Assembly (NCBI GenBank): GCA_963422365.1
Contig: OY729426.1
Coordinates: forward strand, 1,088,001 to 1,152,000
DNA: 64,000 bases
From: Nitrospirales bacterium
GTDB lineage: Bacteria; Nitrospirota; Nitrospiria; Nitrospirales; UBA8639
Direction of reading: 5' to 3'
Part shown: in pieces, positions 2,533-21,973 of the stretch
Position numbering within the stretch: the first letter of the stretch is position 1
Layout of the letters: every line of letters starts with the position of its first letter
The notes under the pieces: generated by a model
Seen by the model: the letters and a program-made list of their open reading frames with translations, nothing else
What the model was told of the DNA's origin: nothing
Database searches by the model: none
Program-made: the position numbers and the translations under genes

Positions 2533-2570
2533 GGTGACGACGGAGTAAGGAAAGAATGAGAACGTCGCGA

Positions 2571-3239: not shown

Positions 3240-3583
3240 ACAAGACCTCTGCTTATTTGAGGGATCAGTCAGTGACAGCTACAATAACTCTCATTCAGGA
3301 GGTATGATCAGGGCGCGATCCCGTTCTGCTCAATAACCGTCGGAAGGCCCACTTGGAACGGGCATGATAAGAAAAAGACCTTAACACTACGTCACAGGAT
3401 GAGTCAACCATTTGCTTTCCCCATCCTTTCTCATCCGTCCCGATCGGTGTGACAACTGGAGGGCTGATAAGCGTTGAAAAGAGGCAAGGTGGTTTCTTGC
3501 AATTTAGCAGGGTGTTGGTGAGCCGGTTCCTTGTTGATCCCTTCATAATCCATATCCATTTCTCAACGAAAAGGAGAGACGGC

Positions 3584-4246
3584 ATGCGTTCATATGGACG
3601 ATACAATCACCAGAAAAAAGGACTCGGGTTCATGCTGCTGTGCTTGTTGGGAGGAATGGGTTCGCCGGCGTTTGCGATTGACGTCCAGTTAACCCTGGAG
3701 CAAGCCAGGCAGATCATGGACTCAGCCCGAGAGCCCATGGAGCAGGCTGCTTCCAATGATGAAATGTTTGGCATCATCAAAGCGGCGGATAAAAACTCCC
3801 GCATTGGGGACGATCCTGCCACCAAACCTTGTGGCAGTAGCGTGATTTTACGAACGAAAACCTATTGGTTCGAATATTTTGGACGCGAAGAAGGCCGACG
3901 GTCCAAGGTTGCTCAACAACAAGTCCGGATGCCTGAAGCCAACATCCAGGAAATTCTGAATATGCCGAATCTTGAAATGGAGATCGGGCTATGCGGGCCG
4001 GAAGAGTTTTTTGCTGAAGGGGCGGACGTGGCACTGCAACAAGGGGCGACGAACGTGATGGCCGTGGATAAAGGCAAGCCCAGCCGTGGCCGGAAAATTC
4101 CTGGATCCGAGATGGAGTATGTGTCTCGGTTTTCCGCCCGATTTGCCTATCGGGATTTTGACCCGCAGGCTGTGACGAATATTGTCGTCTTTTTCCCGGA
4201 CGGGCAATTGATTAGTATTGAGGCAGACTTTTCCAAGATAAAGTAA
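3584..4246 (+). CDS. Hypothetical exported protein
   Basis: AAGGAG RBS before ATG 3584; signal-peptide-like N-terminus ending PAFA. Confidence 0.65.
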   Translation: MRSYGRYNHQKKGLGFMLLCLLGGMGSPAFAIDVQLTLEQARQIMDSAREPMEQAASNDEMFGIIKAADKNSRIGDDPATKPCGSSVILRTKTYWFEYFGREEGRRSKVAQQQVRMPEANIQEILNMPNLEMEIGLCGPEEFFAEGADVALQQGATNVMAVDKGKPSRGRKIPGSEMEYVSRFSARFAYRDFDPQAVTNIVVFFPDGQLISIEADFSKIK

Positions 4247-4311
4247 GTGTGCCGGGCAGAAAGCTCGGGCCTATCGGACAGCCCTCCCCGCACGACCATC
4301 ATTGTCGAATG

Positions 4312-6057
4312 TTAGGATTCAGGGGAGTCCGTTTCCAATTCCACCATCCGCAGTGTATACAGATGGCGGTACAGGCCGTCCTGTTGCATCAGTGCCGTAT
4401 GCGTGCCTTCTTCGACTATTCTGCCCTTGTTGAGAACAAAAATCCGGTTGGCTTCCTGAATGGTCGTGAAGCGGTGGGCAATGACCACGGTCGTCCGTCC
4501 TGCCATGAGTCGTTGTAACGCGTGCTGGACCAACATCTCGGATTCGGAATCCAGCGCCGAGGTCGCTTCATCCAAAATTAAAAGCCGAGGATTTTTGAGG
4601 ATGGCGCGGGCAATCGCAATGCGTTGCCGTTGCCCCCCCGAAAGATTGACGCCTTTTTCGCCGACCAATGTGGCGTACCCATCAGGCAGAACCGAAATAA
4701 AATCGTGGGCGTGAGCGGCCCGACTCGCTGCAACAAGGTCTTTTTCTGACGCGTCTTCTCGTCCATATCGAATATTTTCCAGGATTGTGTCGCCGAATAA
4801 GATGGTTTCTTGGGGCACGATAGCCACTTGTCGATACAGGCTGGTCAAATGCACGTGCCGAAGATCTTGATCGTCGATCGTGATGCACCCTTCGACAGGA
4901 TCATAAAACCGGTGTAACAGATTCGCGATTGTACTTTTCCCCGACCCCGTGGGACCGACTAACGCCACGATTTCCCCTGGATGCACGTCAAAGGAGAGAT
5001 CGGTGAGCACCGGGTGACGCGGATCATACGCAAAACTCACGTGTGAAAAGTTGATATGGCCTTGAATGTCTCGCAACGCTCTGGCTTGTGGGGCATCAGT
5101 CACCTCTGGCGTGGTGTCGAGTAACTCAAAGACGCGTTGCAGGGCACCCTGTCCCTCCTTCATTTTTGAAAAGATTCGTGCCGCTGATCCAAAAGGGCCG
5201 ATTAAAATTCCCGCAAACAACACGAAGGCTAAGAGGTCCCCAGGCGTCATGGCCCCATCGATGACTTGTGTGCCGCCGTACCAAAGGACCGCCCCGGCCA
5301 TCATAAACGTCAAGAGGGTGATGATGGGGATAAACACGGAGAGGATTTTGGCCCGGGAGAGCGTCCTGGCACCCAACGCGTGTACCGCTGTGCCGAATCG
5401 TCCTTCCTCTCGGGTCGTCTGGACAAAGGATTTCACAACTCGAATCCCCGAGATCACTTCTTCAATGAGCGTAGAAAGAGAGGCGGTGTGATCTTGTATC
5501 TGCGTAGAGAGGGACTTCAATCGCTGTCCAAACAGACGGGCCACGAAGACCAAGAGCGGAAGCAACAAGACAATAAGCAGACAGAGTTTCCAATTCATGA
5601 ATAACAAAAACCCGATTCCGCCGATCAGCGTCACCAGTTGTTTGGCGGAATCGATGGGGGTTTCGGTCACGAGGTTCTGAATCACCCCCACGTCGTTCAT
5701 GAGCCGCGAAAGAATTTCCCCCGTTCGTCGTTTTGCAAAAAAACTGAGGGACAGGGTGTGCAAATGACGAAACAGGTGTGTGCGAAAATCGGCGATGATC
5801 AGTTGAGAGAGACGGGTGGTCAGATAAGTCTGCCCCATGGTCAAGACACTTTGGATGATGGCGATTACCAGAAAAAGCAGAATCGTTTGCGTCATGCGTT
5901 CAACATGACGTTGAACCGTGATGAGGTCCCATAATGTGCCTCCGAGTTTCAGCAACGTCAGGTTGAGGGCTGCCACGCCCATGATCAAGGCTCCGGCCAA
6001 TATCATTTGAGAAAGATAGGGACGAAGAAACGGGAACAGGCGAGAGTATTGACTCAT
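4312..6057 (-). CDS. MsbA-like ABC exporter (permease plus ATPase)
   Basis: N-terminal TM domain, Walker A GPTGSGKS, LSGGQRQR signature, LILDEATSALD. Confidence 0.9.
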   Translation of the reverse strand: MSQYSRLFPFLRPYLSQMILAGALIMGVAALNLTLLKLGGTLWDLITVQRHVERMTQTILLFLVIAIIQSVLTMGQTYLTTRLSQLIIADFRTHLFRHLHTLSLSFFAKRRTGEILSRLMNDVGVIQNLVTETPIDSAKQLVTLIGGIGFLLFMNWKLCLLIVLLLPLLVFVARLFGQRLKSLSTQIQDHTASLSTLIEEVISGIRVVKSFVQTTREEGRFGTAVHALGARTLSRAKILSVFIPIITLLTFMMAGAVLWYGGTQVIDGAMTPGDLLAFVLFAGILIGPFGSAARIFSKMKEGQGALQRVFELLDTTPEVTDAPQARALRDIQGHINFSHVSFAYDPRHPVLTDLSFDVHPGEIVALVGPTGSGKSTIANLLHRFYDPVEGCITIDDQDLRHVHLTSLYRQVAIVPQETILFGDTILENIRYGREDASEKDLVAASRAAHAHDFISVLPDGYATLVGEKGVNLSGGQRQRIAIARAILKNPRLLILDEATSALDSESEMLVQHALQRLMAGRTTVVIAHRFTTIQEANRIFVLNKGRIVEEGTHTALMQQDGLYRHLYTLRMVELETDSPES

Positions 6058-6235: not shown

Positions 6236-6753
6236 TGCCCTTGACCTTGATCGGGGGATGGCGCGGTTACACGGGATTACAAAAGGGCCGCGACACGGTT
6301 CTACATCAATGGAATCAACAAATTCCCGACTCCCCATGCAGCCCCGCTCACCCGAATTGTGGTTCGTGTTCCCAGGAGCATCTTCCACACCTAGTGATGG
6401 AATGGTAAATCTTAGTTCCGTCGACGAGCAAATTTCATGCGTCGGCGAAGTTTTTTATGCTTATGCTTCCGCATTTTTTTTTGTCGTTTTTTGACTACAC
6501 TCGCCATTCACACTCCTTTTTTTCCTCACGGGGAAGGTGGTTGCGCTTCTGGGGTCTTACTGAAAGCAAAGAGAGATGTGCTCCAAGGTGCGGAGTGGTT
6601 TCACAGGTAACATAGCGTTTCAGGAAGTGTCAAGAAAGGAACGGGGTCTGTCTCCATGAGTCGTCAGGTTGCCTTGGAAGTAGCAGGATCCTCCATGGGA
6701 GTCAGGGCACGTTCCCTCTCCCGTTGTACGGACGGAACAGGTAACACAGGTTT

Positions 6754-7543
6754 GTCTTAATCCCTTCTTCATCAGGTCTTCACTTCAGACCTTGCGCCCC
6801 CGCCCTACGGGCGGGGGGGCGATAAATGCTGATTAATATTCCGCCTCACGCGCGGCGATCATCTCGCGGGCCTCATCCCATTTGGGTTGCCGGCGCGTGG
6901 CGGCACCCACGCGTTGGATGATGGCCTCGGCATTGCGTTTGCGTTCCAGAGTCCCCCGGCCGCCGCCGGCGATCTCAAGCGCAAACTCGCTGAGCGAGCG
7001 CCCCATCCGAGCGCTATGGCACCCCACGCAGGCGGTGACCAGATTGCTCGGATGAGTATTGCCGTCACCGCCGGTCACATCGTCGATGAGCAGGCCGGCA
7101 CACTCCTCATCCTCGATCACCTGCCCGCAGTATACGCAGGCCAGGTGATCCCGCAGGTAGATGCTAGTTATGGTGGTTATATCCATTGTTTCCCCCTTGC
7201 GCCCCCCGCCCTACGGTCTTAATCCCTTCTTCATCAGGTCTTCACTTCAGACGAAGAATAAAAATCGGGAACGGGCTCTCATCGACCGTCTTAATCCCTT
7301 CTTCATCAGGTCTTCACTTCAGACCCGGATCGGCCGTTTAATGATTAGCATAAAATTAAGAAGGTCTTAATCCCTTCTTCATCAGGTCTTCACTTCAGAC
7401 TCCGCCGAGAATCAGAGAGGGACGTGCACGGGATCGTCTTAATCCCTTCTTCATCAGGTCTTCACTTCAGACAATGGAGATTAAAACTTATGTGAGTACC
7501 GGGAGAGTCTTAATCCCTTCTTCATCAGGTCTTCACTTCAGAC
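6754..7543 (-). CRISPR. CRISPR array: 6 identical 37-bp repeats and 5 spacers (425, 35, 39, 35, 34 bp in + order)
   Basis: GTCTTAATCCCTTCTTCATCAGGTCTTCACTTCAGAC at 6754, 7216, 7288, 7364, 7436 and 7507. The minus-strand form ends ATTAAGAC (type III-like 8-nt 5' tag) and the leader side abuts cas2. Confidence 0.98.
6833..7186 (-). CDS. 117-aa HNH/McrA-fold Zn-binding protein encoded inside the 425-bp CRISPR spacer
   Basis: IYLRD..CVYCG...IDD....G...SNLVTACVGCH matches the HNH pattern RD..C.YCG...DH..P..GG...NLV.AC..CN. RBS AAGGGGGA lies 4 nt before the ATG; TAA stop inside the spacer. Confidence 0.8.
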   Translation of the reverse strand: MDITTITSIYLRDHLACVYCGQVIEDEECAGLLIDDVTGGDGNTHPSNLVTACVGCHSARMGRSLSEFALEIAGGGRGTLERKRNAEAIIQRVGAATRRQPKWDEAREMIAAREAEY

Positions 7544-7719
7544 TCCTTTCTCGAAAAAACCCTTTTCTTAGAATGGCTTGCAAAGGGGGTTGCAGGAAAT
7601 GTCCCAGGCTGCAAGAGGAACGTCACTATCATAACGCCGTGCATGGGGGACTCGATCAAACGAAGAAAAACGAAGTATACGATTTTTTTAATCAATCGTC
7701 AGCCTCATCCCCTAGGGAT
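7544..7719 (-). promoter_or_regulatory. CRISPR leader
   Basis: Non-coding, A/T-tract-rich segment between the terminal repeat and the cas2 stop; imperfect inverted repeat AACCCTTT..AAAGGGGGTT near the first repeat. Confidence 0.7.
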
Positions 7720-8043
7720 TCACGGTCGGTCGGGGGGATCTTGGATCAGTGCCAATCGACTCTGTCCGTTTTCGATCAGTAACGTGTTTGTGGCAAAAAA
7801 CTGTTGTCCCAATAGGGTCACGTCACCGGTGGCGGGCAACGGGTACGCCCGAACGTCATCGTGTTTTGGATCAATCATTGCCTCAAGCTCAGACAGGATG
7901 TGATTGAGTCGGGAGTGACTCAGCGGCGCGGCGAAGACGGAATACTGTACCCGACAAGCGTGCTGACACAGATATCTGGCGACCCGTCCCAGGCGCTTGG
8001 GGTCTGCAATATCGTACGCAACAAGATACAATCGCTGACTCAT
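7720..8043 (-). CDS. cas2: CRISPR-associated Cas2 (copy B)
   Basis: LYLVAYDIADPKRL...RVQYSVF...IDPKHDDVRAY. Confidence 0.93.
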   Translation of the reverse strand: MSQRLYLVAYDIADPKRLGRVARYLCQHACRVQYSVFAAPLSHSRLNHILSELEAMIDPKHDDVRAYPLPATGDVTLLGQQFFATNTLLIENGQSRLALIQDPPDRP

Positions 8044-8804
8044 ACGAAATCCACCAAAAAGCCTTGCAGACGGCTGGTCAGCCTGCGCGCAATTCGCGCC
8101 AACCGGTGACTGTGTTGCTCAAATAATGCCACAACGTCACGATCATTGATACGCTGGTGTGCCGGCCGCCGGCTTAACCATTCACTCAGGGGCAGTTGCA
8201 AGGACAGGGATAATAAATCAGCAGAATCAAGGGGTATGTTCAGCCGTTGCTCAAGATAGAGACTGCGTTCGGCACTCAGCCCTGCTTGCTGTAAGACCTC
8301 GTTGGCGAGATTGCTGCACAACCCATGCAAGCGTCGTTGCAGATCACTTCGCTGGCGCGTGTCAACGAATTGTTCCATATGGCGATCCAGCCTGGCACGG
8401 ATTTGCTTGAGCGAGAACTGGTCCGATTGCACGTTCAATGTGCGGCACAGTGCTCGTCGAGCACGGCTGGCAGCCGCAGCGACCCAGATCTGATAACGGT
8501 CAGGCCAGTCGGGGCGGTCCAGGAGATCACGCAGGTGGGTAAACAAGTCATCGTTCGCTCGGCTACGACCAAACACATGCGCCCTGATTGCGCCGTCATG
8601 CCGTAAGAAGGTGACGGTAATGCCACGCTCTGCGCAAGCAAGCAGAGTGGATGTCGCGCATTCCGGTGACCCGGAAATGACAAGACGGGACATACGGCGC
8701 AAGGGGACAAGCACGGCAGCCTGCCCTGATGCCGCGATACTCAAGGATGGGCCATCTAGGTTGATCTGCATCCCTTTCCGACCATGAATGTAACAGGGCT
8801 TCAT
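8040..8804 (-). CDS. Degenerate, probably catalytically dead Cas1 paralog
   Basis: The N-terminal region parallels the adjacent Cas1 (LDGPSL..VPLRRMSRLVI..LLACAERGITVTFL). The C-terminal half keeps AGL and FEQ but lacks the EG, GFYH and DxxE motifs. Confidence 0.75.
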   Translation of the reverse strand: MKPCYIHGRKGMQINLDGPSLSIAASGQAAVLVPLRRMSRLVISGSPECATSTLLACAERGITVTFLRHDGAIRAHVFGRSRANDDLFTHLRDLLDRPDWPDRYQIWVAAAASRARRALCRTLNVQSDQFSLKQIRARLDRHMEQFVDTRQRSDLQRRLHGLCSNLANEVLQQAGLSAERSLYLEQRLNIPLDSADLLSLSLQLPLSEWLSRRPAHQRINDRDVVALFEQHSHRLARIARRLTSRLQGFLVDFV

Positions 8805-9766
8805 GCGTCATCTGCCTCGGGTAACTCAGGGGCAGCATCCAGCAGGGCCCGTGCGATCTGATAGCTGCGAAGACGCAGATACCGTCGCCATGGCCCGGCA
8901 CATGCGTCATACTGTTCAAAAAACGTCCGGCGGCCGTTTTTGTTGAGCAGGCAGCTTTGTCCTTCGCGGCTGAAGTGGCCCGTGCTCAACAGACGTTGGC
9001 GAAATACATGCCAGACCCAGCGGTCGACCCGCGGCCGCAATGGTTCAATCACGTCACAGGCCAAAGATTGGCGGCCATACGCAGGCTCATGGTAAAACCC
9101 CAGCAGCGGATCGAGTCCTGCTCCATGACAGGCACGTACCGCTTCATGGTGTAGCAGGGTATACACCAGCGACAGGCAGGCGTTCACCGGGTCGCGCGGG
9201 GGACGACGATTCCGCCCGGTGAAGTCCAGACTGCCGGCAAACAGGTGCTGAAACCCGGCAAAGTACATGGCCGCTGCCGACCCCTCCAGACCACGCAACA
9301 CGTCCATGCTCACGGCCTTGTGCACGGAGGGCACGAGAGAAGCCAGCCCTGTTGTCGCGGTACTGAGCGGGTGACGAAGATCGAGTCGGCGTAACAGCGC
9401 GGACTGTAATAGTTTGTGCTGCGCGGTGATTTTCGCCTGCACCAGTTGCCGGCTCCAGTTCAGGCGTCGTTCGGTATCATGCCAGAGCTGATACTGGGCA
9501 AGCCGGCGTCGTGCATCATTATGACCCGGACACAAGAGTTGCAGACGTCGCTGACCTGCGCGCCCGTGCATGATGGTGACGCCTATGCCGCGCTGCCCCA
9601 GTGTTCCCAGCAGACGGCTGTCCAACGTCACCTGACTGTGGATGACGACCCGATCCAGCATTGTGAGCGGCACACTCTGTGGTCCTGCATCGGGTCGCCG
9701 GACCAGCAGTCGTTTCCCGTCCAGTTCGAGTTGCAAGTCTTTGCGATCAATGCATAACGTCAGCAT
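8801..9766 (-). CDS. cas1: CRISPR-associated integrase Cas1
   Basis: LRGLEGSAAAMYF, RNRRPPRDPVNACLS, GLDPLLGFYH, SLACDVIEPLRP; catalytic E/H/D motifs present. Confidence 0.96.
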   Translation of the reverse strand: MLTLCIDRKDLQLELDGKRLLVRRPDAGPQSVPLTMLDRVVIHSQVTLDSRLLGTLGQRGIGVTIMHGRAGQRRLQLLCPGHNDARRRLAQYQLWHDTERRLNWSRQLVQAKITAQHKLLQSALLRRLDLRHPLSTATTGLASLVPSVHKAVSMDVLRGLEGSAAAMYFAGFQHLFAGSLDFTGRNRRPPRDPVNACLSLVYTLLHHEAVRACHGAGLDPLLGFYHEPAYGRQSLACDVIEPLRPRVDRWVWHVFRQRLLSTGHFSREGQSCLLNKNGRRTFFEQYDACAGPWRRYLRLRSYQIARALLDAAPELPEADDA

Positions 9767-9771
9767 CGCGT

Positions 9772-10053
9772 TCAGCCGATGTAACAGTAGGATTGATCTT
9801 CGGGTGCGACACCCTTGCCCAAGGTCTTGATGTCATCCGCAGAGGCCAGCGGCAGGAGCAGAAACCGATCCTCATCCGGATCGATGATCCTCCCGATGGT
9901 CTCGACCAACTCCCGCCGCTCGGTGCCGGTCAGAAAACACTCGAAGACGGATTTCTGGCGGCCACAGGCAAACCCTTTCAATACATACAGGGCAGCCCGC
10001 AGGCGGCTGGTGTTGCTGATGTCATAGGCGGCAAGATAGAGTCGGCGTTTCAT
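9772..10053 (-). CDS. cas2: CRISPR-associated Cas2 (copy A)
   Basis: LYLAAYDIS..RL...QKSVFEC...IDPDEDR. Confidence 0.93.
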   Translation of the reverse strand: MKRRLYLAAYDISNTSRLRAALYVLKGFACGRQKSVFECFLTGTERRELVETIGRIIDPDEDRFLLLPLASADDIKTLGKGVAPEDQSYCYIG

Positions 10054-10093
10054 GCCGACAAGTTAAACATATGGAAGCGCACTTTGCCGGATT

Positions 10094-10138
10094 GGCAAGC
10101 TTGTCGTGGCTGGACAGTTGCTTTGAAGACTCTATAAT
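10094..10138 (+). promoter_or_regulatory. Sigma70-like promoter with upstream palindrome for the CARF-RelE gene
   Basis: GGCAAGCTTGTC 10094-10105, TGGACA 10111-10116, 16-nt spacer, TATAAT 10133-10138. Confidence 0.7.
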
Positions 10139-10175
10139 GAAAGCAGCATCTCACATTGAACGTGGAGGAAGTCAT

Positions 10176-11291
10176 ATGAAACCTAAGTTTGTGCTGTCAC
10201 TTTGCGGGACCAGTCTGCTCACGAATGGCGCAACAGGCTATGAACGGGCTCTTATCACTCGTCACGCCAACGTCAAAGACGAACAAGATATCAAGCATGA
10301 GGAACGCGAAAGCCTGCGAGCCAGGATTGACCACGTATACTCAACATTACAAGAAGCCGCTGAACACCAAATCACAGACATGTCGGCAGAGCTGAATGCG
10401 CTGTACAAACTGTATGACGGCCAACTCGGTCAGGCTGTCAACGACCAGCATTGGCTGCTGTGTACTGATACGTGGCTGGGGAAACAAACAGGGAAACTGA
10501 TACAAGAACAACTGGAACGTCGTGGGATTTCCTCCGTGCAAATTTGTCAGCCAACGGATCTGCGTACAGAGGAACTTCTCACCTTTCAAAGCGCGTTGTC
10601 AGATCTGGTGAAATGGTGTGACGAAACGATAGAACCCTGTCGGTCTAGCTGCCATATCGTTTTCAATCTCACGGGTGGCTTTAAAAGCATTCAGGGGTTT
10701 CTGCAAACGCTGGCGATGTTTTATGCTGATGAAGCCATCTACGTCTTTGAATCCGGCACGGAATTATTACGGATACCCAGATTGCCGATCAGGCTGGACA
10801 CGGACGACGTGGTACGTCAACACCTTCATGTCTTCAGGCGTTTGGCCAAGGGTCTCGGTCTTGATGAACAGTGCCAGCTTGATGATATTGATGCTATTCC
10901 AGAGACGTTATTGCTTCGCCTTGATAACGATGTCGATTTGTCGCTTTGGGGAGATTTGGTCTGGAAGCAGACGTATAAAGATGTTTATGGTGAAAAACTC
11001 TGGCCTTCTCCAAGCAAAAAAATCATCTACGGCGAAAAATTTGAGGCAAGTGTTGCATCACTTCCACCTGACCGGATCGGGCAGGTCAACAGTCGTCTGG
11101 ATCAGCTTGCCGTCCATCTTGAACGTGGAGGGCACAATTTGTCTTCCCTGGATTTCAAACCGCTGAAGGGCAGGATTAAAAACTATACTCATGAGCTTGA
11201 CGCCTGGGCCGACCAAGACGCCAAAAGGATGTATGGACGCCTTGAAAATGGTGTTTTTACAGTCGAGGTCCTTGATGAGGCTTTGCATTAA
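10176..11291 (+). CDS. cami1: APE2256-family CARF plus C-terminal RelE-like domain; Cami1-like cOA-activated mRNA interferase
   Basis: CGTSLL, SAELNAL, TDT..G, FNLTGGFK, YVFE..LP CARF motifs. The C-terminal LDFKPLKG..HELDAW..AKRMYG resembles RelE. GGAGG RBS before ATG 10176. Confidence 0.8.
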   Translation: MKPKFVLSLCGTSLLTNGATGYERALITRHANVKDEQDIKHEERESLRARIDHVYSTLQEAAEHQITDMSAELNALYKLYDGQLGQAVNDQHWLLCTDTWLGKQTGKLIQEQLERRGISSVQICQPTDLRTEELLTFQSALSDLVKWCDETIEPCRSSCHIVFNLTGGFKSIQGFLQTLAMFYADEAIYVFESGTELLRIPRLPIRLDTDDVVRQHLHVFRRLAKGLGLDEQCQLDDIDAIPETLLLRLDNDVDLSLWGDLVWKQTYKDVYGEKLWPSPSKKIIYGEKFEASVASLPPDRIGQVNSRLDQLAVHLERGGHNLSSLDFKPLKGRIKNYTHELDAWADQDAKRMYGRLENGVFTVEVLDEALH

Positions 11292-11416: not shown

Positions 11417-11725
11417 TTACGCCGAGTCTTTCTTGACGACTTTCGTGATCGTGTATTCTTCCAGTCGCGCACCGAATCTCCGCATGTCTTCCGTGCTTAA
11501 CTCCATGCCACGGTGAGTGGCAGGTATATCCATGGATAAGTGAAAATACCGTCCGCCGCGCTCGCACACGGCTGCTGCTACGTGAACGGGCAGTGTGCCA
11601 AGGACCTTATCACCGGGAACAATCGTTGAAAGATCGAGATGCTCGACCATCGCGTCGACTGAAAACCCTTCCTGTTCAGTCCAGGCTTTGGCGCCGGTGT
11701 GACGAGTGATGAAAATCGTGCCCAT
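11417..11725 (-). CDS. csx16: CRISPR-associated Csx16 (ring-nuclease candidate)
   Basis: FITRHTGA..W, HLD....GDKVLGTLPVHVAA.VC.RG.RYFHL......RG.EL. Confidence 0.9.
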   Translation of the reverse strand: MGTIFITRHTGAKAWTEQEGFSVDAMVEHLDLSTIVPGDKVLGTLPVHVAAAVCERGGRYFHLSMDIPATHRGMELSTEDMRRFGARLEEYTITKVVKKDSA

Positions 11726-13305: not shown

Positions 13306-14739
13306 TCAATTTTCTCCTTTATAAATTTGCAAGGCCTTTTTAATCGACTTGCCTGGTGGTGGGTTATCCCACCACCCCTTTTCCTGCCAGCGTGCCTGAA
13401 TGTCTGCTAACGCAGTCTGTTTTAGGTCACCGTCTTCAATTGCTTGCCAGGATTTTGCTAGTGGTTGGCCACGCAGGGCTTCATCAGCTGAAGCATGGTG
13501 CTGTTCTTGAATGGCCGCAATTTGTTCTTCCACCCATGGGCTGCGCACGACGTCTGTCGAACTGGTTTTTTGACTTGCGGCACGTATTTCTGTCTCATCC
13601 GACCAGGGTGACAATCTTATCCAGCCCAGTGGTAAACGGGGATTGCCTTGTACGGCTAATCTCCTGGTTTTTGGAAAATTTTCAGATTTTCCGAGACGAT
13701 AAAGTCCACGCATTTTTTCCTGCGTTTCTGCATCTTGCCAACCGCCCGTCATTCCCCGCCAACCACTGCCCCAAGCCAATCTTAGATAAGCGGCATTCTC
13801 TGTTTGTTGAATGGTTTCCCGTAATGTTTCGCATTGTTCGACGATTGTTTGCTGCTTGTAACGCTGAAAAAATTTTATTTCCTGTTCGAGGATATGTCGT
13901 GCGTGACCGTTGAGCTTTGCACAGAGTCCGGCAAAATCTGCCGGTAATAACTCAAGACTGTGCTGAGGCGCGTACCAACGATTTGGGTCTTTCAGCAGGA
14001 ATCGATCCCACTGCAGTGACATCGCTGCGATTGCGGTAGGTGCTAGAGTCTCGGCGTAAATACCGGTTGCGTCCTGCCACCTGTTCTCGTTTTTCCTGTT
14101 AGACATATTGCGCCATTTCGCGAACTGTCTGTCATTGGATCTGGTGATATTTAGCCAACGAACGTCGGCAAGACACAGATCACTGGTTTGGAAGTTAGCA
14201 TCACCTACGTGCAGAGCACGCAGCAGATCTTTGTTTGGATCAGAACCAAAGACATATTTTGTGATAGCAGTTGCTGCCATCTTAGGAGAACAGGTAGGCT
14301 TCTTCTGCGTATTATCCCACCGTGGAAGACGGCTTGCTATCCCACTCGGTCTGCTGTGCAGCCATGCGGCTAACAGTGCGGTGCGGATAGCGCCTTTTAT
14401 TGAACTGCCCGGCAGGTAGGGATGCAACATGGCATCTTTGATAAACTCCCTGAATTTCTCCGGCAGGGCCATTTTCCCCTGCAAATAGGGAAGTGGGTAG
14501 CCGTAGTATGTGCCTGCAAGCCTGACAGAATCACTCAGTTTGGGATTTGCTTGCAGTAGAGTATCAAGTGCTGTATGACCCGATGCAATGGCATTAAAAG
14601 TTCGGTTCTGATCGACAACAAAAACCTGTCCTCGTTGCTCCACGTAATCAAGTTCACGATATAATTCTTCCCCTGAGCCAACGTGTACCGGTGTCAATAT
14701 TTCAACGGCAAGTTGAATCGTTTCCGTTTGTCCTTTCAT
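13306..14739 (-). CDS. csm5: Type III-A Csm5 RAMP
   Basis: LTPVHVGSG, PYLPGSSIKGAIRT, LRLAWGSGW, PLGW; follows csm4. Confidence 0.92.
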   Translation of the reverse strand: MKGQTETIQLAVEILTPVHVGSGEELYRELDYVEQRGQVFVVDQNRTFNAIASGHTALDTLLQANPKLSDSVRLAGTYYGYPLPYLQGKMALPEKFREFIKDAMLHPYLPGSSIKGAIRTALLAAWLHSRPSGIASRLPRWDNTQKKPTCSPKMAATAITKYVFGSDPNKDLLRALHVGDANFQTSDLCLADVRWLNITRSNDRQFAKWRNMSNRKNENRWQDATGIYAETLAPTAIAAMSLQWDRFLLKDPNRWYAPQHSLELLPADFAGLCAKLNGHARHILEQEIKFFQRYKQQTIVEQCETLRETIQQTENAAYLRLAWGSGWRGMTGGWQDAETQEKMRGLYRLGKSENFPKTRRLAVQGNPRLPLGWIRLSPWSDETEIRAASQKTSSTDVVRSPWVEEQIAAIQEQHHASADEALRGQPLAKSWQAIEDGDLKQTALADIQARWQEKGWWDNPPPGKSIKKALQIYKGEN

Positions 14740-15728
14740 GAAACAACTCCCGTTCCTATGAAAAAGCCTCTGCCGTCCCGATAGATAGGATGAGGGGATG
14801 CTTTCCCTTCCGGCGTATTGGTAGGTGTAACCTCAACCACCCGGCCGGTGAGGGACCGACGGAACTGACTGCCTTCGGTAAACATGCGCAATCTCAAACG
14901 TCGCAAACCATGATGTGCAATCCATCCTCCTCGACTCATCAGGTTGTAGCTCGATCCTTCAAGCCAAGTCCCTGAAAAATCTGTTGGGGCAGGGCTGACG
15001 AGTGATAACGCAGTAAAAATGCCGTTATCAGTGGTCTTCAACTCAGGAAAATTGTCTGCTTTTTGCCATTCGAAAAAGCCGTTGCCATTGCTTCGGTCTG
15101 CGCCGATGCCACTGTCCCCCAATAAACTGAGCGCAGCCTCGAATCCTTTTCTATCATTATCGTTGCCAAAATGTGCCAGGAAGTATAAGCCCGATTCCGA
15201 GTGGAAGTGTACGCGCCCGAAGTTGAATAATTGCCCCTCCAGCGGGGCACCACTGGCGCGGTCAGTCGCTAGCCTTGGGCGTTCCTCCTGCGCCCATAGC
15301 GTTAATTTTTCTACCTGTTTGCAGATCGCCTTGGGCAAGGCCAGTGTCGATTGAACAATATCGATAGCATCAAGGTTTAGCTGCCAGCCATTTGTCGCGG
15401 TATCGTGCCACAATTCTGGCGCTATCCATTGAATCTTTTTAAGCTTCTTATAGCTGCGCAGGTCTTTATCGGGTAAGTCCGGTGCAGTGCTTCCAATAGG
15501 GCGAGGCAAAAAGTAAGTGTTCTGAAAATAGGGGAATGCCGAACTGAGTAGGAACGGTGGTGCCGCAGCCCGTTCAGTCGCAACATTCGGTTCCAACAGC
15601 GCCCACGCTGATAAAATCGCGGCGCTCAACGTATCCGAGTGAATAAATATCTCGGATTCATCATAGAAATTGTTGCCGCGATTATCGACGTGAAAAGGCG
15701 CTGTAAACTTGAGTTTGTAGCAGTCCAT
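14736..15728 (-). CDS. csm4: Type III-A Csm4 RAMP
   Basis: HSDTLSAA, LSSAFPY, LGDSGIGADRSNGNG, MFTEGS, HPIYRDG. Confidence 0.93.
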   Translation of the reverse strand: MDCYKLKFTAPFHVDNRGNNFYDESEIFIHSDTLSAAILSAWALLEPNVATERAAAPPFLLSSAFPYFQNTYFLPRPIGSTAPDLPDKDLRSYKKLKKIQWIAPELWHDTATNGWQLNLDAIDIVQSTLALPKAICKQVEKLTLWAQEERPRLATDRASGAPLEGQLFNFGRVHFHSESGLYFLAHFGNDNDRKGFEAALSLLGDSGIGADRSNGNGFFEWQKADNFPELKTTDNGIFTALSLVSPAPTDFSGTWLEGSSYNLMSRGGWIAHHGLRRLRLRMFTEGSQFRRSLTGRVVEVTPTNTPEGKASPHPIYRDGRGFFIGTGVVS

Positions 15729-15739
15729 AACAGTTTATT

Positions 15740-16522
15740 TCAGGCAACAGCTTCGGCTTCTGTAGCAGACGGCTTGAATTCATCTGGTATCTTGTAATCC
15801 GACAAATCCGCTTCCTTGTTGCCTGATTTGTATTGTTCCGCAGTCCGTTGGGTCAGTGAAGTCCTAGAAAATTTGACCTGCCCATAACCGCGCGAACCGT
15901 TACCACCGAGTGTATCCGCTTGAACCAGACGCAATCCTTCAAATAGCAGGTTGAGGAAATGCTTCTGATCATCGTCTTCAAGCAAAGTAAGAATGAATTC
16001 GAAATCAAATTCCGCTCCCGCGGGCACACGTTCGATCTGGCGTGGATTTGCGGCGGAGGTAATGCGATCAATCCAGACCTCGGTTTTGACTTCGGTCATC
16101 GGCATATCGGCATTGGGCGCTGAAAGAAGCTTAACTCGACTCGCTTTTGTCAACAGCGCATCACGAACAATCAAACGTGTTGGTTCTATTGAGTCTTCAG
16201 CCGCAACGCCAAATAGTTTGCCTAGCGACGTATCCGACTTCTTCCCCGCCAAGGCTTCCTTCTTCTCACGTATAGAGAAGCCCCCTTCGACGTTCTGGTT
16301 ATTTTCCTCATTTCCCCGAACCCGTTCGAGTAATGCCCTCATTTTGCCCCGTAATGACGAGCCTGGAATATACGGATCATTGGTTAGCGGGTTCCGCACA
16401 ACGACTGAATCGGCGCCACCGATAGCCATGCCGACGGAATTACCTCCGATATGCAACCCGGTTAAAGCTGTCAAATGACCTCGAACAAAAATTTTACTGC
16501 TTACTTTTTTGATGTCAGTCAT
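15740..16522 (-). CDS. csm3: Type III-A Csm3 backbone RNase
   Basis: TGLHIGG, IGGAD (catalytic Asp), PYIPGSSLRGKMR, KTEVWIDR..ANPRQIERVP, LGGNGSRGYG. Confidence 0.96.
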   Translation of the reverse strand: MTDIKKVSSKIFVRGHLTALTGLHIGGNSVGMAIGGADSVVVRNPLTNDPYIPGSSLRGKMRALLERVRGNEENNQNVEGGFSIREKKEALAGKKSDTSLGKLFGVAAEDSIEPTRLIVRDALLTKASRVKLLSAPNADMPMTEVKTEVWIDRITSAANPRQIERVPAGAEFDFEFILTLLEDDDQKHFLNLLFEGLRLVQADTLGGNGSRGYGQVKFSRTSLTQRTAEQYKSGNKEADLSDYKIPDEFKPSATEAEAVA

Positions 16523-16524
16523 GG

Positions 16525-16926
16525 CTATTTTCCTCCTGCTGCTTTATGGTAAGCGACTATTGCTTCAAAAAATTGGCAAAATCGCTGAAACGATGCTTCA
16601 TCATTGACAGCGTCAATCGCACTATCCATCACCTTTTTCAGCTCTTTCAAACCGTCACCATGCCGGCCTGCTGCATAAGCCAACCTGGTTTTGAGAAGAA
16701 GCACTTCGCGCCGTGTGCGACTTTGCCAGCCAGACATCTCCAGCTTTTTCATATTACCGTATGCATTGCGAATTTGGCTGGTAGTAACTTTTTTAGTTTG
16801 CAGAATTTCTCCAAACCTTTCTGCAAATTGAACCATTTGTTTAGCAGTATCGTCTTGAGCAATGTAGCTTTTAATCTCTTCAGGTGTTGGCATTGGGGTT
16901 TCACCGCTTGATCTATTTGTTGGCAT
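16525..16926 (-). CDS. csm2: Type III-A small subunit Csm2
   Basis: TTSQIRN, LLKTRLAYAAGR, FFEAIVAYHK; start may be 16893. Confidence 0.93.
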   Translation of the reverse strand: MPTNRSSGETPMPTPEEIKSYIAQDDTAKQMVQFAERFGEILQTKKVTTSQIRNAYGNMKKLEMSGWQSRTRREVLLLKTRLAYAAGRHGDGLKELKKVMDSAIDAVNDEASFQRFCQFFEAIVAYHKAAGGK

Positions 16927-19498
16927 CAGCAGATCTCCTCGTTAAAAATTCGGCCCACCGGGTGGGCAGTTCCAACCATTCAATCGCTGGTCGGATTGAT
17001 TCAGTCCGGCTTTCAGTAATAGTTGCGATCAAATTGTTCAAATCTTCCTCAATAGCAGGGGTGCGACGTGCCACGCGTTTCAGGTTGTAAACCAGACGCC
17101 AGCGCCATTGTTGCCAATGTAACAGTTCACGTATTTCATCTTTCTGTAATTGTCGTTTATCACTGAGCCGTCGGAACTCTTCAACTGCAAGCACGACCGA
17201 GCGTAATCTGTCGAGTATTGCCCGATTCCCGGTTTTTTCAATAATGGTTTCGATTTGCTTTTTTAACGTCAGAGCACGAGGATATTCTTCCCAGCCGATA
17301 GTTATGCCAAGCAGCGAGACAGCATCTTTTTCACGCTTGTTACGTTTCAGTACTTTTGCGCTTGACTCAGCTTCACTAGCCAAATCGGCGGCCCGTGATA
17401 TAGGGTATTTGCCGTCAACCATGATAAGGCCACCAGAAAGTGTAAACACAGGATTGCCTGCGCAATAGCGTTGAAATTCTTGCCGAATTTTATCAGCGAC
17501 ATCCGGCAGCTCATCCCAGGAACCGATGATAAACACATCGTCGCCCCCTGAATAAATAACTTGGCTACGCTTATAAGTTTTGAGCAGCTCCATAAGGTGA
17601 CCGGCAAAAAACAGGTGTAGCTGACGGGATAGAGTAGCCACCCTGGATAATGATCCCATTTCTTCTTCTGTGCCTGTTGCGCTTGGGAATTTGAGTCCAC
17701 GAATGAATATCTCACCCAAGTTATCGACATCCAGACGTAATACACCCATACGTCGAATACCCTTAGCGTTTTTATCAAAATCATCAAATTCCCATGGGGC
17801 TGCTTCTTCTTTGTCGCGGTCCCACCTACCAAGTAACCGAAAACCACTCGCATAACCATGCTGGTTGAATTTCGGATCAGTAATTTGATTGATACGTTCA
17901 TAATAGCTGGCAGCCAGCGAGCGTAACTCACTGAATTCAGGTAAACCATTTTGTTTTGAAACATGAATATGCCAATCCGTACCAGGTAAAGAAATACAAG
18001 CTAATTCCTTTTCCTTGATACTGTCCAAGTCACTTTTCCAAACCCAGAAAAAGGCTTCTGCGTCAGTCAGGCTTTGCCCCAACTTTTGTAAATTATTACA
18101 TTGCTTACAGATTGCTCCATCATCCGTCTGGCTGATTTCGGCATCTTTATCATCCCGGCTACAAACCCTGCACGCGGAGCCGGGAGCAAGTTCTTGCGGC
18201 GTAAAAAAACTATGGTCTTTTTCCAGTAATGGGCGGAAACGCTGCTGCCGGTCACGCATCAGGTTATCATTCGCAGCTTTCCAGCGTTTGCCCATGTTGC
18301 CACTGGCGAAATCTCCACCACATACCGGTGCGATACCGGTGCCGAGAAAAATGTCTCCTTGAAATTCTTTAATCAGAGCCTCATTTATTGCCGCCATCTC
18401 GTCTTTCAATGATTGCTCCAGACAGTCAGGTATGAGCAGGTAAAATTTGCCGCCAGAAGAATAAATGCGGGCAGTGGGGTAGAGTTTAAGTTTCCGTAAT
18501 AAATGTTCCGCAACACCGTCACATAACAGTTGTATATAAAGTGATCGTCCACGTAGACCCTTGGCAGCACCTTTACGGGTAATCTTGTAGATGAAATTCT
18601 GGATACCGGAAAAATCACCACAGACCAGACGCCATTTGTGGGTGGTTTTATCATTAAATGTATCAGGCTGATCAAGTGTGTCATGATGCTGATGATGTAG
18701 AAATAAACCTTCTGCAATAGCTGCCGTAACACGCAAATGGTCATATAACGATATGTCCGGGTGGATGACGTTCGTTGCCGCTGGAACGGTAGTCAAGAAA
18801 CGTTCCATCTGTGCCAGTAGCGTCATCATGAATGAACGCAAAGCGGCCGTTGTGAGTCGGTCATATTCGGGCACCTTTTCCATTGCATTCAGCAAACCAT
18901 CAGCCAGTTTCTGATAATCGTCCGATAAGTCCGTTGGACTGATCCAGACTGGATTTTCTCCAGCCTCTATCTTGGTCATAGGCGGATCAAATGCAGTTGT
19001 CGGCAATGAAAATATATCCCGGCCAGTTGTTAAGGGGTTAAGGCCTGCCCGAAACTCGGTAGGTTTGGAAACACCATCTAAATTGATGCGTTCAAGCATG
19101 GGTTCCAGAAGAGTACGGCGATGAATATTTCGTTGATAAAAATTTCCCTGTTCACGTTCGGCACTGGCGAAATGATCAGCTGCCTGAATAAGACGTTCCA
19201 TGTCCGTAGAGGCCACATGATGATGTGCGGCCATATTGATCCAGTTGGCTGCTGCTTGCGGATCATGTTGTTCTGATGGCTGTAAAATGGGAACGATACG
19301 ACAGAGCTCTTCACAAAAACGACGGGTATGTAATACGTGCAGGTGACTCCAGTAGCCACCACTCCGATGCCAGGGACAGTCCTGTTGCCTTTGGTCCTCA
19401 TTAGCACGATATTCACCAAGCCGATTTGCTCGCTCGAAAAATTTGCCTATGTCGTGCAATAAAGCGCCAAATACAATGTGGTCATGCGGTTCCATCAT
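16913..19498 (-). CDS. cas10: Cas10/Csm1 with intact HD nuclease and GGDD cyclase motifs
   Basis: LLHDIGKF, DISLYDH, GDFSGIQNFIY, LRGRS, Zn finger CRVC..CKQC, DVDNLG, YSGGDD. Start placed at 19498 because a -10 box lies at 19532-19537. Confidence 0.97.
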   Translation of the reverse strand: MMEPHDHIVFGALLHDIGKFFERANRLGEYRANEDQRQQDCPWHRSGGYWSHLHVLHTRRFCEELCRIVPILQPSEQHDPQAAANWINMAAHHHVASTDMERLIQAADHFASAEREQGNFYQRNIHRRTLLEPMLERINLDGVSKPTEFRAGLNPLTTGRDIFSLPTTAFDPPMTKIEAGENPVWISPTDLSDDYQKLADGLLNAMEKVPEYDRLTTAALRSFMMTLLAQMERFLTTVPAATNVIHPDISLYDHLRVTAAIAEGLFLHHQHHDTLDQPDTFNDKTTHKWRLVCGDFSGIQNFIYKITRKGAAKGLRGRSLYIQLLCDGVAEHLLRKLKLYPTARIYSSGGKFYLLIPDCLEQSLKDEMAAINEALIKEFQGDIFLGTGIAPVCGGDFASGNMGKRWKAANDNLMRDRQQRFRPLLEKDHSFFTPQELAPGSACRVCSRDDKDAEISQTDDGAICKQCNNLQKLGQSLTDAEAFFWVWKSDLDSIKEKELACISLPGTDWHIHVSKQNGLPEFSELRSLAASYYERINQITDPKFNQHGYASGFRLLGRWDRDKEEAAPWEFDDFDKNAKGIRRMGVLRLDVDNLGEIFIRGLKFPSATGTEEEMGSLSRVATLSRQLHLFFAGHLMELLKTYKRSQVIYSGGDDVFIIGSWDELPDVADKIRQEFQRYCAGNPVFTLSGGLIMVDGKYPISRAADLASEAESSAKVLKRNKREKDAVSLLGITIGWEEYPRALTLKKQIETIIEKTGNRAILDRLRSVVLAVEEFRRLSDKRQLQKDEIRELLHWQQWRWRLVYNLKRVARRTPAIEEDLNNLIATITESRTESIRPAIEWLELPTRWAEFLTRRSADANK

Positions 19499-19531
19499 TA
19501 GCGTAATAACCTTCTCTTGATCATCGTCTTG

Positions 19532-19579
19532 AGTGTAATCGATTTCCAGATGCAATTGTTCGACGGCAAGCTTGCCGTC
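19532..19579 (-). promoter_or_regulatory. Palindromic operator plus -10 box upstream of cas10
   Basis: Perfect 18-bp palindrome GACGGCAAGCTTGCCGTC 19562-19579; TACACT on the minus strand 27 nt from the 12-bp core. Confidence 0.7.
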
Positions 19580-19583
19580 TCCG

Positions 19584-20726
19584 TCATGTTTCCAGAAACC
19601 GTACCTGTTCTTTTTTCAGCGTTAACCCTTTCAACCGGCACCGCGACTCTGGAATCACGCCGATAGGACTGATCAGATAAGGGGTGGCCGGTTCCTTGCC
19701 CAGGCTTCTTTTAAGAAGCCCATTGATTTTGCTCGTTTTCTGATCCATAAAATCCTGGTCCATGCCACGTCTTAAACTGTCACGTGCATTCTCATAATCT
19801 GCGCTGTACTCACCGACAATGTGGACATATTCTTCGAGGTATTCTTCGCTGACGTTTTCCTGGGTCCAGTGTATGCCCGGAGTGCCTGCCAGTAGACGAC
19901 GGGCAAACCAGGCGTAAAAGGCGAAAAGACTGGGAGTAAGGGGCACAGGGTGGTCGCCGCAGTGAATGGTCTTGTTGTTGCTGTCGAGGATCAGTTTCGG
20001 CGGATTAACGTTGCGTTGTGTTCGGGAGACGGTTTCCGAATAACTCATGCTTTCGCCCAGTATGCTGCTATCCAGGTGCCCGCGCAGTCGCACAAAGGGG
20101 ATGTCTGCCAGCGTGATCTCGGCGTCACGGGTATGGATGGGGCGTTTGTTGTGGTCTCGCAGGACTTTCGGTTTGGGGGGCGGGTAGTAAAATTGTGGGT
20201 GTGACTCAAACGGTGGTGAGACCAGTACGTGGGACAGGCGATCCTGCTCGCGCCCGAACAGACTCATGGCGTAGCCCAGGTAGAACCCCATGGTCTTGCG
20301 GCCACCGGCGATAGAGGCGTGGATGATGGTCTGTGGATCAGCAGTCAGGCGTCGCACGATAGCGGTGATGGTATCGGCAGCGGTTTCATTGTCGGCAAGA
20401 CTGCGAATGTCGTCCAGTGGTTTCTTGTCATCCGCAGGGATCTGATGGATGGTCTCTCCGTCGAATCGGATGCCACCTGGATCGATGTCAAGATCAGCGC
20501 AGAGCCGATAAAAATGCTGTTCTTCGGGGTCGCTTTCGAGGAGCGTCAGGCGTACCCTGTCGGCTCCTTCGGCGGTGGTGATGATATGAATGGCCGTCGG
20601 GATGAATGGATCGTCTCGCGTGGCCAGTGCATAGAAGGTTTCGGTAATCACCTGTGGTGATAAACCGGCGGCACACAGCAAGATGCGTTGTGAGCAACCG
20701 ATGGGTGAGCGTGCCGCGTTTGTCAC
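19584..20726 (-). CDS. NE0113-family CARF protein with C-terminal HTH-like extension
   Basis: GLSPQVITET, DDIR, SIAGGRKTMG, SLFGREQDRLSHVLV, FESHPQFYYP. The track ORF starts at 20867; the true start is probably the GTG near 20726. Confidence 0.85.
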   Translation of the reverse strand: MTNAARSPIGCSQRILLCAAGLSPQVITETFYALATRDDPFIPTAIHIITTAEGADRVRLTLLESDPEEQHFYRLCADLDIDPGGIRFDGETIHQIPADDKKPLDDIRSLADNETAADTITAIVRRLTADPQTIIHASIAGGRKTMGFYLGYAMSLFGREQDRLSHVLVSPPFESHPQFYYPPPKPKVLRDHNKRPIHTRDAEITLADIPFVRLRGHLDSSILGESMSYSETVSRTQRNVNPPKLILDSNNKTIHCGDHPVPLTPSLFAFYAWFARRLLAGTPGIHWTQENVSEEYLEEYVHIVGEYSADYENARDSLRRGMDQDFMDQKTSKINGLLKRSLGKEPATPYLISPIGVIPESRCRLKGLTLKKEQVRFLET

Positions 20727-20873
20727 TGGATACGCCTGTCTCGGATTTGATCCAGAATATCTTTCGGTACAAGGCTGGATACGGGATGACGGCTTTTCAG
20801 TGCAGGCCTCGTTCCGGTGTCGGTGGATTGCATGACGGTTTCCATGAACGATGGTCGTTCTAGGCAAGCCCTG

Positions 20874-21854
20874 TTAATCGACGCTGATGATTGCATACTT
20901 GCCCAGCCCCATGCTGGTGTTTTTGCCCGCGTGAGTCCATTGGCCGAGCCAGATGTAGTGCCAGAAAGGCACGAGTGCGTTGCTTCCGGAACAGCCGCCG
21001 GCGCTGACCTCGAACGTCACCGTGCCCAACAGTCCGCCAAGCTGCATCAGGCTGTCCTGACGGCTGGAATAGCGGGTCCAGTCATGCCAGCGCAGTTCAT
21101 GACGTGCCACGGGTATCGCTTCAGCTGCCCGGGTCAGCGCGGCAAAGTCGGTTTCCAGCGGCGTGTCGGTGTGAAACGCGGTGAGCAGGGAGAGACGCCG
21201 CAATAACGTCGAAAAGAGGGTCTTGAACGTCAACCCGTTCGGCGTGATAAGGTGATCGCGGGCTTTCACGCGCAAGGGCGTGAGGAACTCGATTTTCAAT
21301 TGAGCCGGACAATCCGGCGGATTGCGACACTCCGGAGGTTGCGGCTGGAGATTTCCTCCTGGCCGGTAGATTGACAACCATGCATCCTGCACGTGCTGTT
21401 GAACCTCAAGTAACGTGAGTGTTCCGCGTTGTTTGCCAATACCTCGTTGGGCGGCTTGGTCAAGCGCGTGAATGATATAGGGCAGATGACGATTCCCACG
21501 TCCGAACAGCGTCATCTCCAAGCTGTGCTCGGTCTCCGCCGCCAGGGGACCGTGCATCGTGTCGCCCGGATTCAGGACGAACGGGTGTGGCGCGGCGTTG
21601 TATTTGCGCAGTTTGCCGACGCCTGGATCCGGCGGTGTCTCAAAAATATAGGGGTAGATACAACTGCGATACAACAGGCAGGGTTCACAGTGCGGTTCGC
21701 GGGTCACGCAGACCAGTCTTTTGAGGCTGTTGCCGAAGGCGCCGCGCCAAGCGGAACCGGAATAGTCCGGCAGGCGCATGGAGCCGGCTGTTCGAAACCT
21801 GAACCGATAGTGCGCCAAGGGTAATGATGGTTCGCTGAATGATGCTGTATTCAT
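20874..21854 (-). CDS. cas6: CRISPR pre-crRNA processing endoribonuclease Cas6
   Basis: GSAWRGAFG, Cys cluster C..C.L...C.Y, PHPF, TPLR, DWTRYSSRQ, G-rich loop HAGKNTSMGLG. Confidence 0.92.
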   Translation of the reverse strand: MNTASFSEPSLPLAHYRFRFRTAGSMRLPDYSGSAWRGAFGNSLKRLVCVTREPHCEPCLLYRSCIYPYIFETPPDPGVGKLRKYNAAPHPFVLNPGDTMHGPLAAETEHSLEMTLFGRGNRHLPYIIHALDQAAQRGIGKQRGTLTLLEVQQHVQDAWLSIYRPGGNLQPQPPECRNPPDCPAQLKIEFLTPLRVKARDHLITPNGLTFKTLFSTLLRRLSLLTAFHTDTPLETDFAALTRAAEAIPVARHELRWHDWTRYSSRQDSLMQLGGLLGTVTFEVSAGGCSGSNALVPFWHYIWLGQWTHAGKNTSMGLGKYAIISVD

Positions 21855-21973
21855 AGAAGTTTCCCGTTTGTTGCAACAACGTAACGGGTTACCCAAAGTT
21901 GTTCAACGCGAAAATTCTATATGTTACGATAGGTTATGGAGATAATGTGTTGAACCCCTTGCTTCAGGCGTTT

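Follow-up and report, generated by a model that had tools for sequence, protein, structure and literature searches.

Spacer acquisition by CRISPR-Cas systems of type III-A is tightly sized. In the accessible parts of the reports, ~99% of new III-A spacers are 32-42 bp long and adaptation prefers hairpin-forming DNA, taken up in either orientation (PMC8860593), while the assays size-select ~70-bp expansions (PMC8860593; PMC8860600), so that gene-sized captures would escape them. Intervals of at least 100 nt between repeats appear in a survey of IS-caused long spacers (PMC4524480, Table S4). Other described cases, each as given in the accessible portion of its source, are a whole prophage with its integrase that splits a CRISPR repeat at an 8-bp att site (bioRxiv 10.1101/2020.10.09.333658), standalone repeats and mini-arrays with cargo (bioRxiv 10.1101/2023.03.03.530964), and the PeSL cassettes of T4-type phages, in which recombination of repeated stem-loop cassettes yields gene mini-circles (PMC2839356). 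In the literature searched, which lies mostly outside subscription journals, no whole-gene spacer with terminal direct repeats is described.

Integron cassettes are promoterless genes with a ribosome binding site (RBS) and a downstream hairpin, kept in an array that is read from one upstream promoter. The unit considered here, a 425-bp interval in a CRISPR array of a Nitrospirales bacterium (genome G000), shares these traits, but it is bounded by CRISPR repeats, its hairpin is found in no other interval, and nothing points to excision, to reshuffling or to a dedicated integrase. Identification as an integron cassette is not supported, for lack of a shared attC-like hairpin, the hairpin pattern matching 1 of 302 loci, this insert alone.

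Against canonical III-A acquisition, as far as the accessible text of the two reports describes it (PMC8860593; PMC8860600), the insert shares foreign DNA, two full repeats, adjacent cas1 and cas2, ends at hairpin-forming DNA and an orientation that is free at capture; it differs in being 425 rather than 32-42 bp long, in holding a whole gene with its RBS, and in its flush terminal direct repeat. With the IS-caused spacers of the survey (PMC4524480, Table S4) it has in common at least 100 nt between repeats, but it contains no transposase or inverted repeats, has no remnant of a normal spacer on either side, and is single copy and of phage type. An IS or MITE is not supported as its identity, for want of a transposase, inverted repeats and multiple copies. 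Like a PeSL cassette, it is a small gene bounded by stem-loops that could form a one-period circle, a likeness by description drawn from the accessible text (PMC2839356), although no promoter was detected in the insert element and the unit sits in a CRISPR array. Standalone-repeat cargo, in the accessible portion of the report (bioRxiv 10.1101/2023.03.03.530964), resembles the RmuC, SNase and Cas_APE2256 genes between decayed repeats in the related genomes G023, G048 and G052, whereas G000 has foreign cargo between perfect repeats that keep register with an active array. The published prophage also places phage DNA inside an array, but it splits the repeat at its 8-bp att site and is whole, with an integrase (bioRxiv 10.1101/2020.10.09.333658, as far as accessible); with no split repeat, att site or integrase at the insert, that identity was rejected.

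The window, by which we mean the whole 64,000-nucleotide stretch analysed, contains the array and its cas genes (Table 1). Six identical 37-nt repeats are separated by intervals of 425, 35, 39, 35 and 34 bp, and the two repeats flanking the insert are complete, unsplit and in register with the array. The description in the earlier note, 425 bp between two perfect 37-bp repeats where the other intervals are 34-39 bp, an intact 117-codon ORF behind an RBS (AAGGGGGA-AACA-ATG, 7186->6833, the RBS 4 nt ahead of the start), no transposase, no terminal inverted repeats and no split repeat, was borne out. The insert is real, rare and spacer-like, yet its length fails the spacer ruler (34-39 bp in this array).

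Table 1. Features of the array, the insert and the cas locus (window coordinates)
Feature	Position	Strand	Basis
Terminal CRISPR repeat, leader-distal, 37 nt, perfect	6754..6790	-	Repeat comparison
Oversize spacer, 425 bp, 64% GC, single copy	6791..7215	-	
Direct repeat at insert terminus, copy 2 (19 nt); hairpin loop, 3' arm and 4-nt tail	6791..6809	-	
GC-rich hairpin, 3-nt loop, 12 nt downstream of stop codon, no U-tract	6794..6820	-	Folding
117-aa ORF, ATG start, 117 codons, intact	6833..7186	-	
Shine-Dalgarno-like AAGGGGGA, overlaps end of direct repeat copy 1	7191..7198	-	Sequence
Direct repeat at insert terminus, copy 1 (20 nt); half-hairpin that begins 1 nt ahead of the loop	7196..7215	-	
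Five perfect repeats (7216, 7288, 7364, 7436, 7507) and four normal spacers (35, 39, 35, 34 bp)	7216..7543	-	
Leader, similar to G023, G048 and G052 leaders	7544..7673	-	By-eye comparison
cas2	7720..8043	-	Pfam PF09827
Short divergent cas1-like gene, 254 aa	8040..8804	-	N-terminal half of Cas1 profile only
Full-length cas1	8801..9766	-	PF01867 E=2e-76
Second cas2	9772..10053	-	Profile search
Cas_APE2256-family accessory gene	10071-11291	+	
Cas_VVA1548-family accessory gene	11417-11725	-	
Type III-A effector genes: cas10 (16913-19555), csm2, csm3-like RAMP, csm4, csm5-like RAMP	13306..19555	-	
Cas_NE0113-family gene and cas6 (20874-21896)	19584..21896	-	

The GC content of the insert is at the 94th percentile of genome windows, and a search of the genome found no further copy of the 425 bp. 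Pairing of AAGGGGGA with the 3' end of the host 16S rRNA is computed at -9.8 kcal/mol, and an ORF of such length arises in 35 of 2,000 shuffles. Because the leader near 7544 on the minus strand is shared, by eye, with G023, G048 and G052, and because repeats decay at the end opposite the leader in relatives, the array is read as transcribed from the minus strand, which makes the insert its oldest unit and places the gene in sense, the orientation proposed earlier. The spacers of the five arrays of this repeat family in the genus and of two other arrays in G000 showed no match to the insert beyond 12 nt.

The most informative feature of the insert, overlooked by the earlier note together with the protein family described below, is a 19/20-bp direct repeat at its two ends, flush with both CRISPR repeats. 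The copies differ by one extra G in a run in copy 1 and pair at -28.2 kcal/mol as DNA; no random genomic 425-mer among 20,000, and no GC-matched window among 5,000, scored as high as their 16. Read in sense, the insert runs from a half-hairpin through RBS, gene, stop and full hairpin to the first bases of a would-be next RBS, and so amounts to one 406-bp hairpin-RBS-gene period with a 19/20-bp terminal overlap. The GC hairpin that had been reported 3' of the ORF is confirmed (-24.6 kcal/mol, z -3.75, 0 of 200 shuffles equally stable). It is not a canonical terminator, a terminator scan did not call it, and an Rfam search gave no match inside the insert. A host repeat family was considered as its source and rejected, only the two terminal copies occurring in the genome. 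Its stem is reminiscent of those of type I-C repeats. The insert begins CGTAG; in several loci of the same repeat family (L016 at 7493-7527, L149 and L095), GTAG-starting REP-like palindromes lie directly after or inside trailer-end repeats.

The ORF product is HNH-like (Pfam HNH score 18.4, below the 21.4 cut-off). Protein representatives include 356 relatives at E<=0.001, of which the best share 38-50% identity with it. The family is encoded in 400 of the 600 viral stretches scanned, and a structure model (pLDDT 94) has as its best viral fold match a Caudovirales HNH protein (TM 0.83, E 8e-9), with PDB fold matches that are weak and mostly to Cas9 HNH domains; the viral-stretch scan and the fold matching are our basis for a phage origin of the family. 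No close ortholog was found in 300 genomes of the order, a count that may include the unpublished genome G280, on which no positive claim depends, the best match being E 1e-6 at 30-35% identity. In HNH enzymes the general-base His after Asp and the metal-ligand Asn are catalytic. Residues were compared across 143 aligned relatives of <260 aa, with 6 longer matches left out. The insert protein keeps the Zn-type cysteines C17, C20, C53 and C56 and the IYLRD and NLVT motifs, while His36 (His in 142/143 relatives) is replaced by Asp, Asn57 (Asn in 141/143) by His, and Arg6 (present in 137/143) is lost. With both catalytic residues replaced while fold and cysteines are kept, the protein is predicted to be nuclease-dead, and the gene, judged by its sequence, is a degenerate member of a phage small-HNH family. 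Loss of active-site residues from an intact structural core suggests that this pseudo-nuclease state already existed in the donor.

The locus is of type III-A, with cas10, csm2, csm4, two further RAMPs (named csm3 and csm5 from RAMP matches and gene order), cas6, a full cas1, a short cas1-like gene and two cas2 genes. RT-Cas1 acquisition from RNA was rejected, as G000, 98.6% complete, has 0 matches to the reverse transcriptase profile (PF00078). A single promoter-like site (7702-7674) is at chance level. The short cas1-like gene of the adaptation module (7720-10053) aligns to positions 6-151 only of the Cas1 profile and also occurs in G052 and in 11/401 genomes of another class. A link between this gene and oversize spacers was considered: G000 and G052 have it, and a search of the G023 and G048 loci did not find it. 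The link is not supported by four long-contig arrays with a cas2-cas1-short cas1 module, picked via a short cas1 match among 12 outside regions: two are all-normal, one has an IS-type insert and one a 517-bp trailer interval. The IS-type insert (L306, array 1037-5884, G574) is a 1,144-bp mid-array unit with transposase-like ORFs that we take to be IS630-type. The 517-bp interval (L305, 10373-10925, G553), at what is probably the trailer end of a related array, is bounded by a terminal repeat with 3 mismatches and by a perfect repeat, and no terminal direct repeat was found in it. G000 itself has two further arrays (C1 771168 and 875192; 26 and 100 repeats) near Cas4-family genes, with normal spacers.

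A whole repeat duplicated on either side of foreign DNA marks the action of Cas1-Cas2. Since both flanking repeats are perfect and unsplit and cas1 and cas2 lie adjacent, capture by these proteins is favoured, the role of Cas1 being drawn from repeat duplication and proximity only. Our estimate is a probability of about one half that this real, single-copy insert stems from a single Cas1-Cas2 integration event of the wrong size, which took up a phage-type gene unit with its ends in a repeated GC hairpin; the best reading is of a rare, hairpin-guided capture that then persisted. The donor would have been a tandem hairpin-punctuated phage region, or a mini-circle excised from it, cut at two copies of the element; we infer the tandem arrangement, since the donor was not found. 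The hairpins would have attracted the type III-A integrase and fixed both ends of the insert, and the ~20-nt overlap may have paired two distant 3' ends, which would have reached the repeat together with ~385 bp looped out. Repair would then have duplicated the CRISPR repeat as with any spacer. Because the 19-20-nt overlap is shorter than the 34-39-nt ruler, this geometry is unlike that of a normal prespacer, and the pairing step is not general, as 0 of the 12 other oversize intervals in the genus carry a terminal direct repeat (scores 3-6 vs 16).

Once in place, the insert may have persisted as harmless, given a predicted dead nuclease and a sense orientation. Long intervals are likely lost by deletion between repeats less often than short ones and would gather at the old end of the array, which requires no selection if deletion falls with distance. 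Neutral persistence alone leaves unexplained the sense orientation, discussed below, of every distinct cargo gene that matched a family or homolog (6 of 6). The clean junctions, perfect repeats with a ~20-bp overlap in a hairpin, provide a specific, testable hypothesis for the integration of long DNA by Cas1-Cas2. If it is true, CRISPR arrays would be an occasional route for whole genes from phage to host, and donors that end in direct repeats might serve site-specific insertion. If the insert is a mere accident that stuck, it still helps to explain the gene-punctuated array ends of relatives.

Recombination in two steps, an unlikely alternative to mis-sized integration, would account exactly for the flush terminal repeat: a 19-20-bp hairpin-derived spacer is acquired first, and a 406-bp phage mini-circle then enters by a single crossover that duplicates the shared segment. 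Twenty base pairs are short for RecA recombination. The first step, moreover, needs a spacer ~15 bp under normal, and among related-repeat intervals 0 of 1,500 lie 9-31 bp below the array median, the tail holding one each at -8 and -32. Mini-circles as such are described for PeSL cassettes in the accessible text (PMC2839356), which speaks for the second step.

The repeat family of this array occurs in 5 of 38 genomes of the genus and in no other genus among 401 genomes of the order, a count that may include G280. The five arrays share one chromosomal site, and each has oversize intervals at its leader-distal end, 13 in total: 425 bp in G000; 655 bp in G005; 874 and 227 bp in G023; 234, 3,275 and 125 bp in G048; and 1,007, 1,057, 3,073, 360, 412 and 403 bp in G052. 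The normal intervals of the same arrays number 62, of 32-39 bp. Only two oversize intervals lie between perfect repeats, the 425 bp of G000 and the 1,007 bp of G052, each in the last such position. The latter is 66% GC, begins with host-type palindromes and has three sense ORFs, the last cut by the repeat; a search of the 114 other family genomes did not find the interval, while five homologs of its first ORF, at 76-98%, lie on other contigs. The 655 bp of G005, delimited by a decayed far repeat identified by alignment and by eye, hold a frameshifted phage gene (phrog_4786). Both are foreign-looking and apparently blind captures at the same position. What is left of the G005 array (L017) is three repeats and the phage-gene interval, with a different leader, and cas1, cas2 and cas6 gave no match in the fetched locus. 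Intervals between decayed repeats contain Cas_APE2256, RmuC or SNase genes or repeat-rich non-coding DNA, and as this cargo is partly common to G023, G048 and G052, it is inherited rather than independent. The 6/6 sense count includes G048 genes whose orientations were taken from same-strand alignments among those listed. In G052, the Cas_APE2256-family gene (L054 4103-5194) begins 2 nt past the last perfect repeat. The purine run of the repeat could serve as its RBS, and Cas6, cutting at 8 nt from the end of the repeat, would take this candidate site away, a possible translation switch.

The earlier note had called for a scan of arrays with this repeat family for other gene-sized spacers; oversize intervals recur in 5 of 5 arrays in the genus. 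Outside it, in 123 loci with related repeats, 0 of 1,523 intervals among the matches listed (flanking repeats with <=2 mismatches) exceed 55 bp. Four longer outside intervals among these matches all involve decayed repeats. The outside loci are mostly on short-read contigs, and a trailer flank of 500 bases is available for only 29 arrays; the number of long units there may be an underestimate. The two other arrays of G000 have 0 oversize among 124 intervals.

One ambitious extension would have the ruler bypassed at donor ends with short direct repeats and the old array end of this genus selected as a landing pad, with sense cargo expressed from the leader and the dead HNH protein acting as a decoy or in defence; to this we give only a small chance. 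Rather improbable, too, is the proposal of the earlier note, a gene-capture and expression platform in which Cas6 releases a translatable monocistronic RNA, here considered as under selection. The predicted Cas6 product of the insert is 462 nt, with the RBS at nt 26-33 and the AUG at nt 38-40 (8-nt tag assumed). In the III-A system of Staphylococcus epidermidis, Cas6 intermediates lose sequence at their 3' end under the Csm3 ruler until mostly 31-43 nt are left (accessible text of PMC5389561). Csm would likely load the product of the insert and trim it to an ordinary short crRNA that covers RBS and AUG, and the gene would be trimmed off unless the 3' hairpin blocks nucleases. The hairpin could indeed slow exonucleases, and the intact sense ORF, the strong RBS, a protein that keeps its fold (pLDDT 94), the oversize trailer intervals in 5/5 loci, the 6/6 cargo genes in sense and the G052 gene 2 nt after its repeat all speak for the platform. 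Against these, the RBS core is predicted to be only 23-33% unpaired, one cargo gene is frameshifted and another cut while some cargo is non-coding and repeat-rich, the old cargo is common to three genomes and hence not independent, most neighbouring genes share the orientation anyway, and no oversize interval stands among the near-perfectly flanked ones listed outside the genus or in the other arrays of G000. Masking of the RBS by a G-quadruplex was also considered and rejected, the predicted fold being unchanged. Any translation of the gene would, on this analysis, more likely start from the unprocessed precursor RNA. Of the original proposal, capture of a whole foreign gene between intact repeats is supported, whereas the integron-like expression platform is not, the protein being predicted dead.

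A non-autonomous mobile element, either a 386-bp core inserted into a short spacer with a 19-20-bp target-site duplication or a rolling-circle element (IS91/IS200-type) with hairpin ends, is a poor fit. The flush direct repeat looks like a target duplication, but it belongs to the insert's own hairpin and RBS, unlike a random target, and a 19-20-bp spacer would again be required. The + strand of the insert ends in CTTG, an IS91 target tetranucleotide, and an IS-type insert sits in one other array (L306); the insert itself is a single genome copy without transposase or terminal inverted repeats. In the accessible part of the survey, IS elements make up most long spacers (PMC4524480, Table S4).

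It is very improbable that a prophage or integrative element took the CRISPR repeat for its attachment site and was later mostly deleted, leaving the insert behind. The cargo is of phage type, and prophage integration into CRISPR repeats is known; yet the published case, as far as its accessible text goes, splits the repeat at an 8-bp att core (bioRxiv 10.1101/2020.10.09.333658), both repeats are whole here, there is no integrase, and deletion would leave no direct repeat flush at both junctions.

The earlier note had proposed a search of phage and plasmid databases. The protein family proved phage-borne, but a nucleotide donor was not found, which weighs against the mis-sized integration of a phage unit. 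A word-indexed protein search returned self only among 18 candidates, and no donor came from viral and metagenome contigs searched with the single protein, from phage records (tblastn and blastn) or from plasmids. The hairpin and RBS patterns had no match in viral contigs, where the CRISPR repeat was not found either. Of 80 viral loci of the family, only 1 has a flanking repeat that scores at least 16; among control pairs the share is 0.7%.

The reads agree with the assembly. A repeat-insert-repeat unitig of 483-485 nt occurs in 4/4 runs of study P1, one of which may be the source of the assembly; it holds 29-30 repeat bases per side, below the 31-base bridging rule. Insert depth equals that of the flanks in X2 (119 vs 115/115), X3 (75 vs 75/76) and X4 (6.7 vs 7.2/6.3). 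It is lower in X1 (192 vs 301/271), as are two normal spacers (189 and 116), and these X1 unitig depths (window 6761-7536) hint at array variants there. In X7 (study P4, depth 3), the left flank, repeat 1 and 70 insert bases are bridged; X5 (study P2) and X6 (study P3) have identical interior insert pieces only, and X8 does not cover the insert. None of the runs listed with the insert is an RNA run. No homolog of the insert was found in 40 relatives. In the CRISPR-free genome G001, the left flank and the gene found at window 21982 are immediate neighbours, which means that the CRISPR island as a whole occupies an otherwise empty site. Although the right junction is seen in P1 only, in unitigs one base under the bridging rule, two of the ways in which the earlier note had said it could be wrong, misassembly and a stretch of ordinary chromosome lying between two arrays, are scarcely credible given the flank-equal depth in X2, X3 and X4, a left junction bridged by an independent study, 0 of 40 relatives with a homolog and an empty G001 site without such DNA.

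Beyond the array, a strongly conserved minus-strand stretch (window 6388-6527) encodes a small Lys/Arg-rich protein and serves as a synteny anchor in the genus. Five further genomes of the genus have a single diverged repeat and no array at the same chromosomal site (L019 4430, L020 1808-1844, L022 4151, L057 and L062), which looks like a recurrent CRISPR landing spot.
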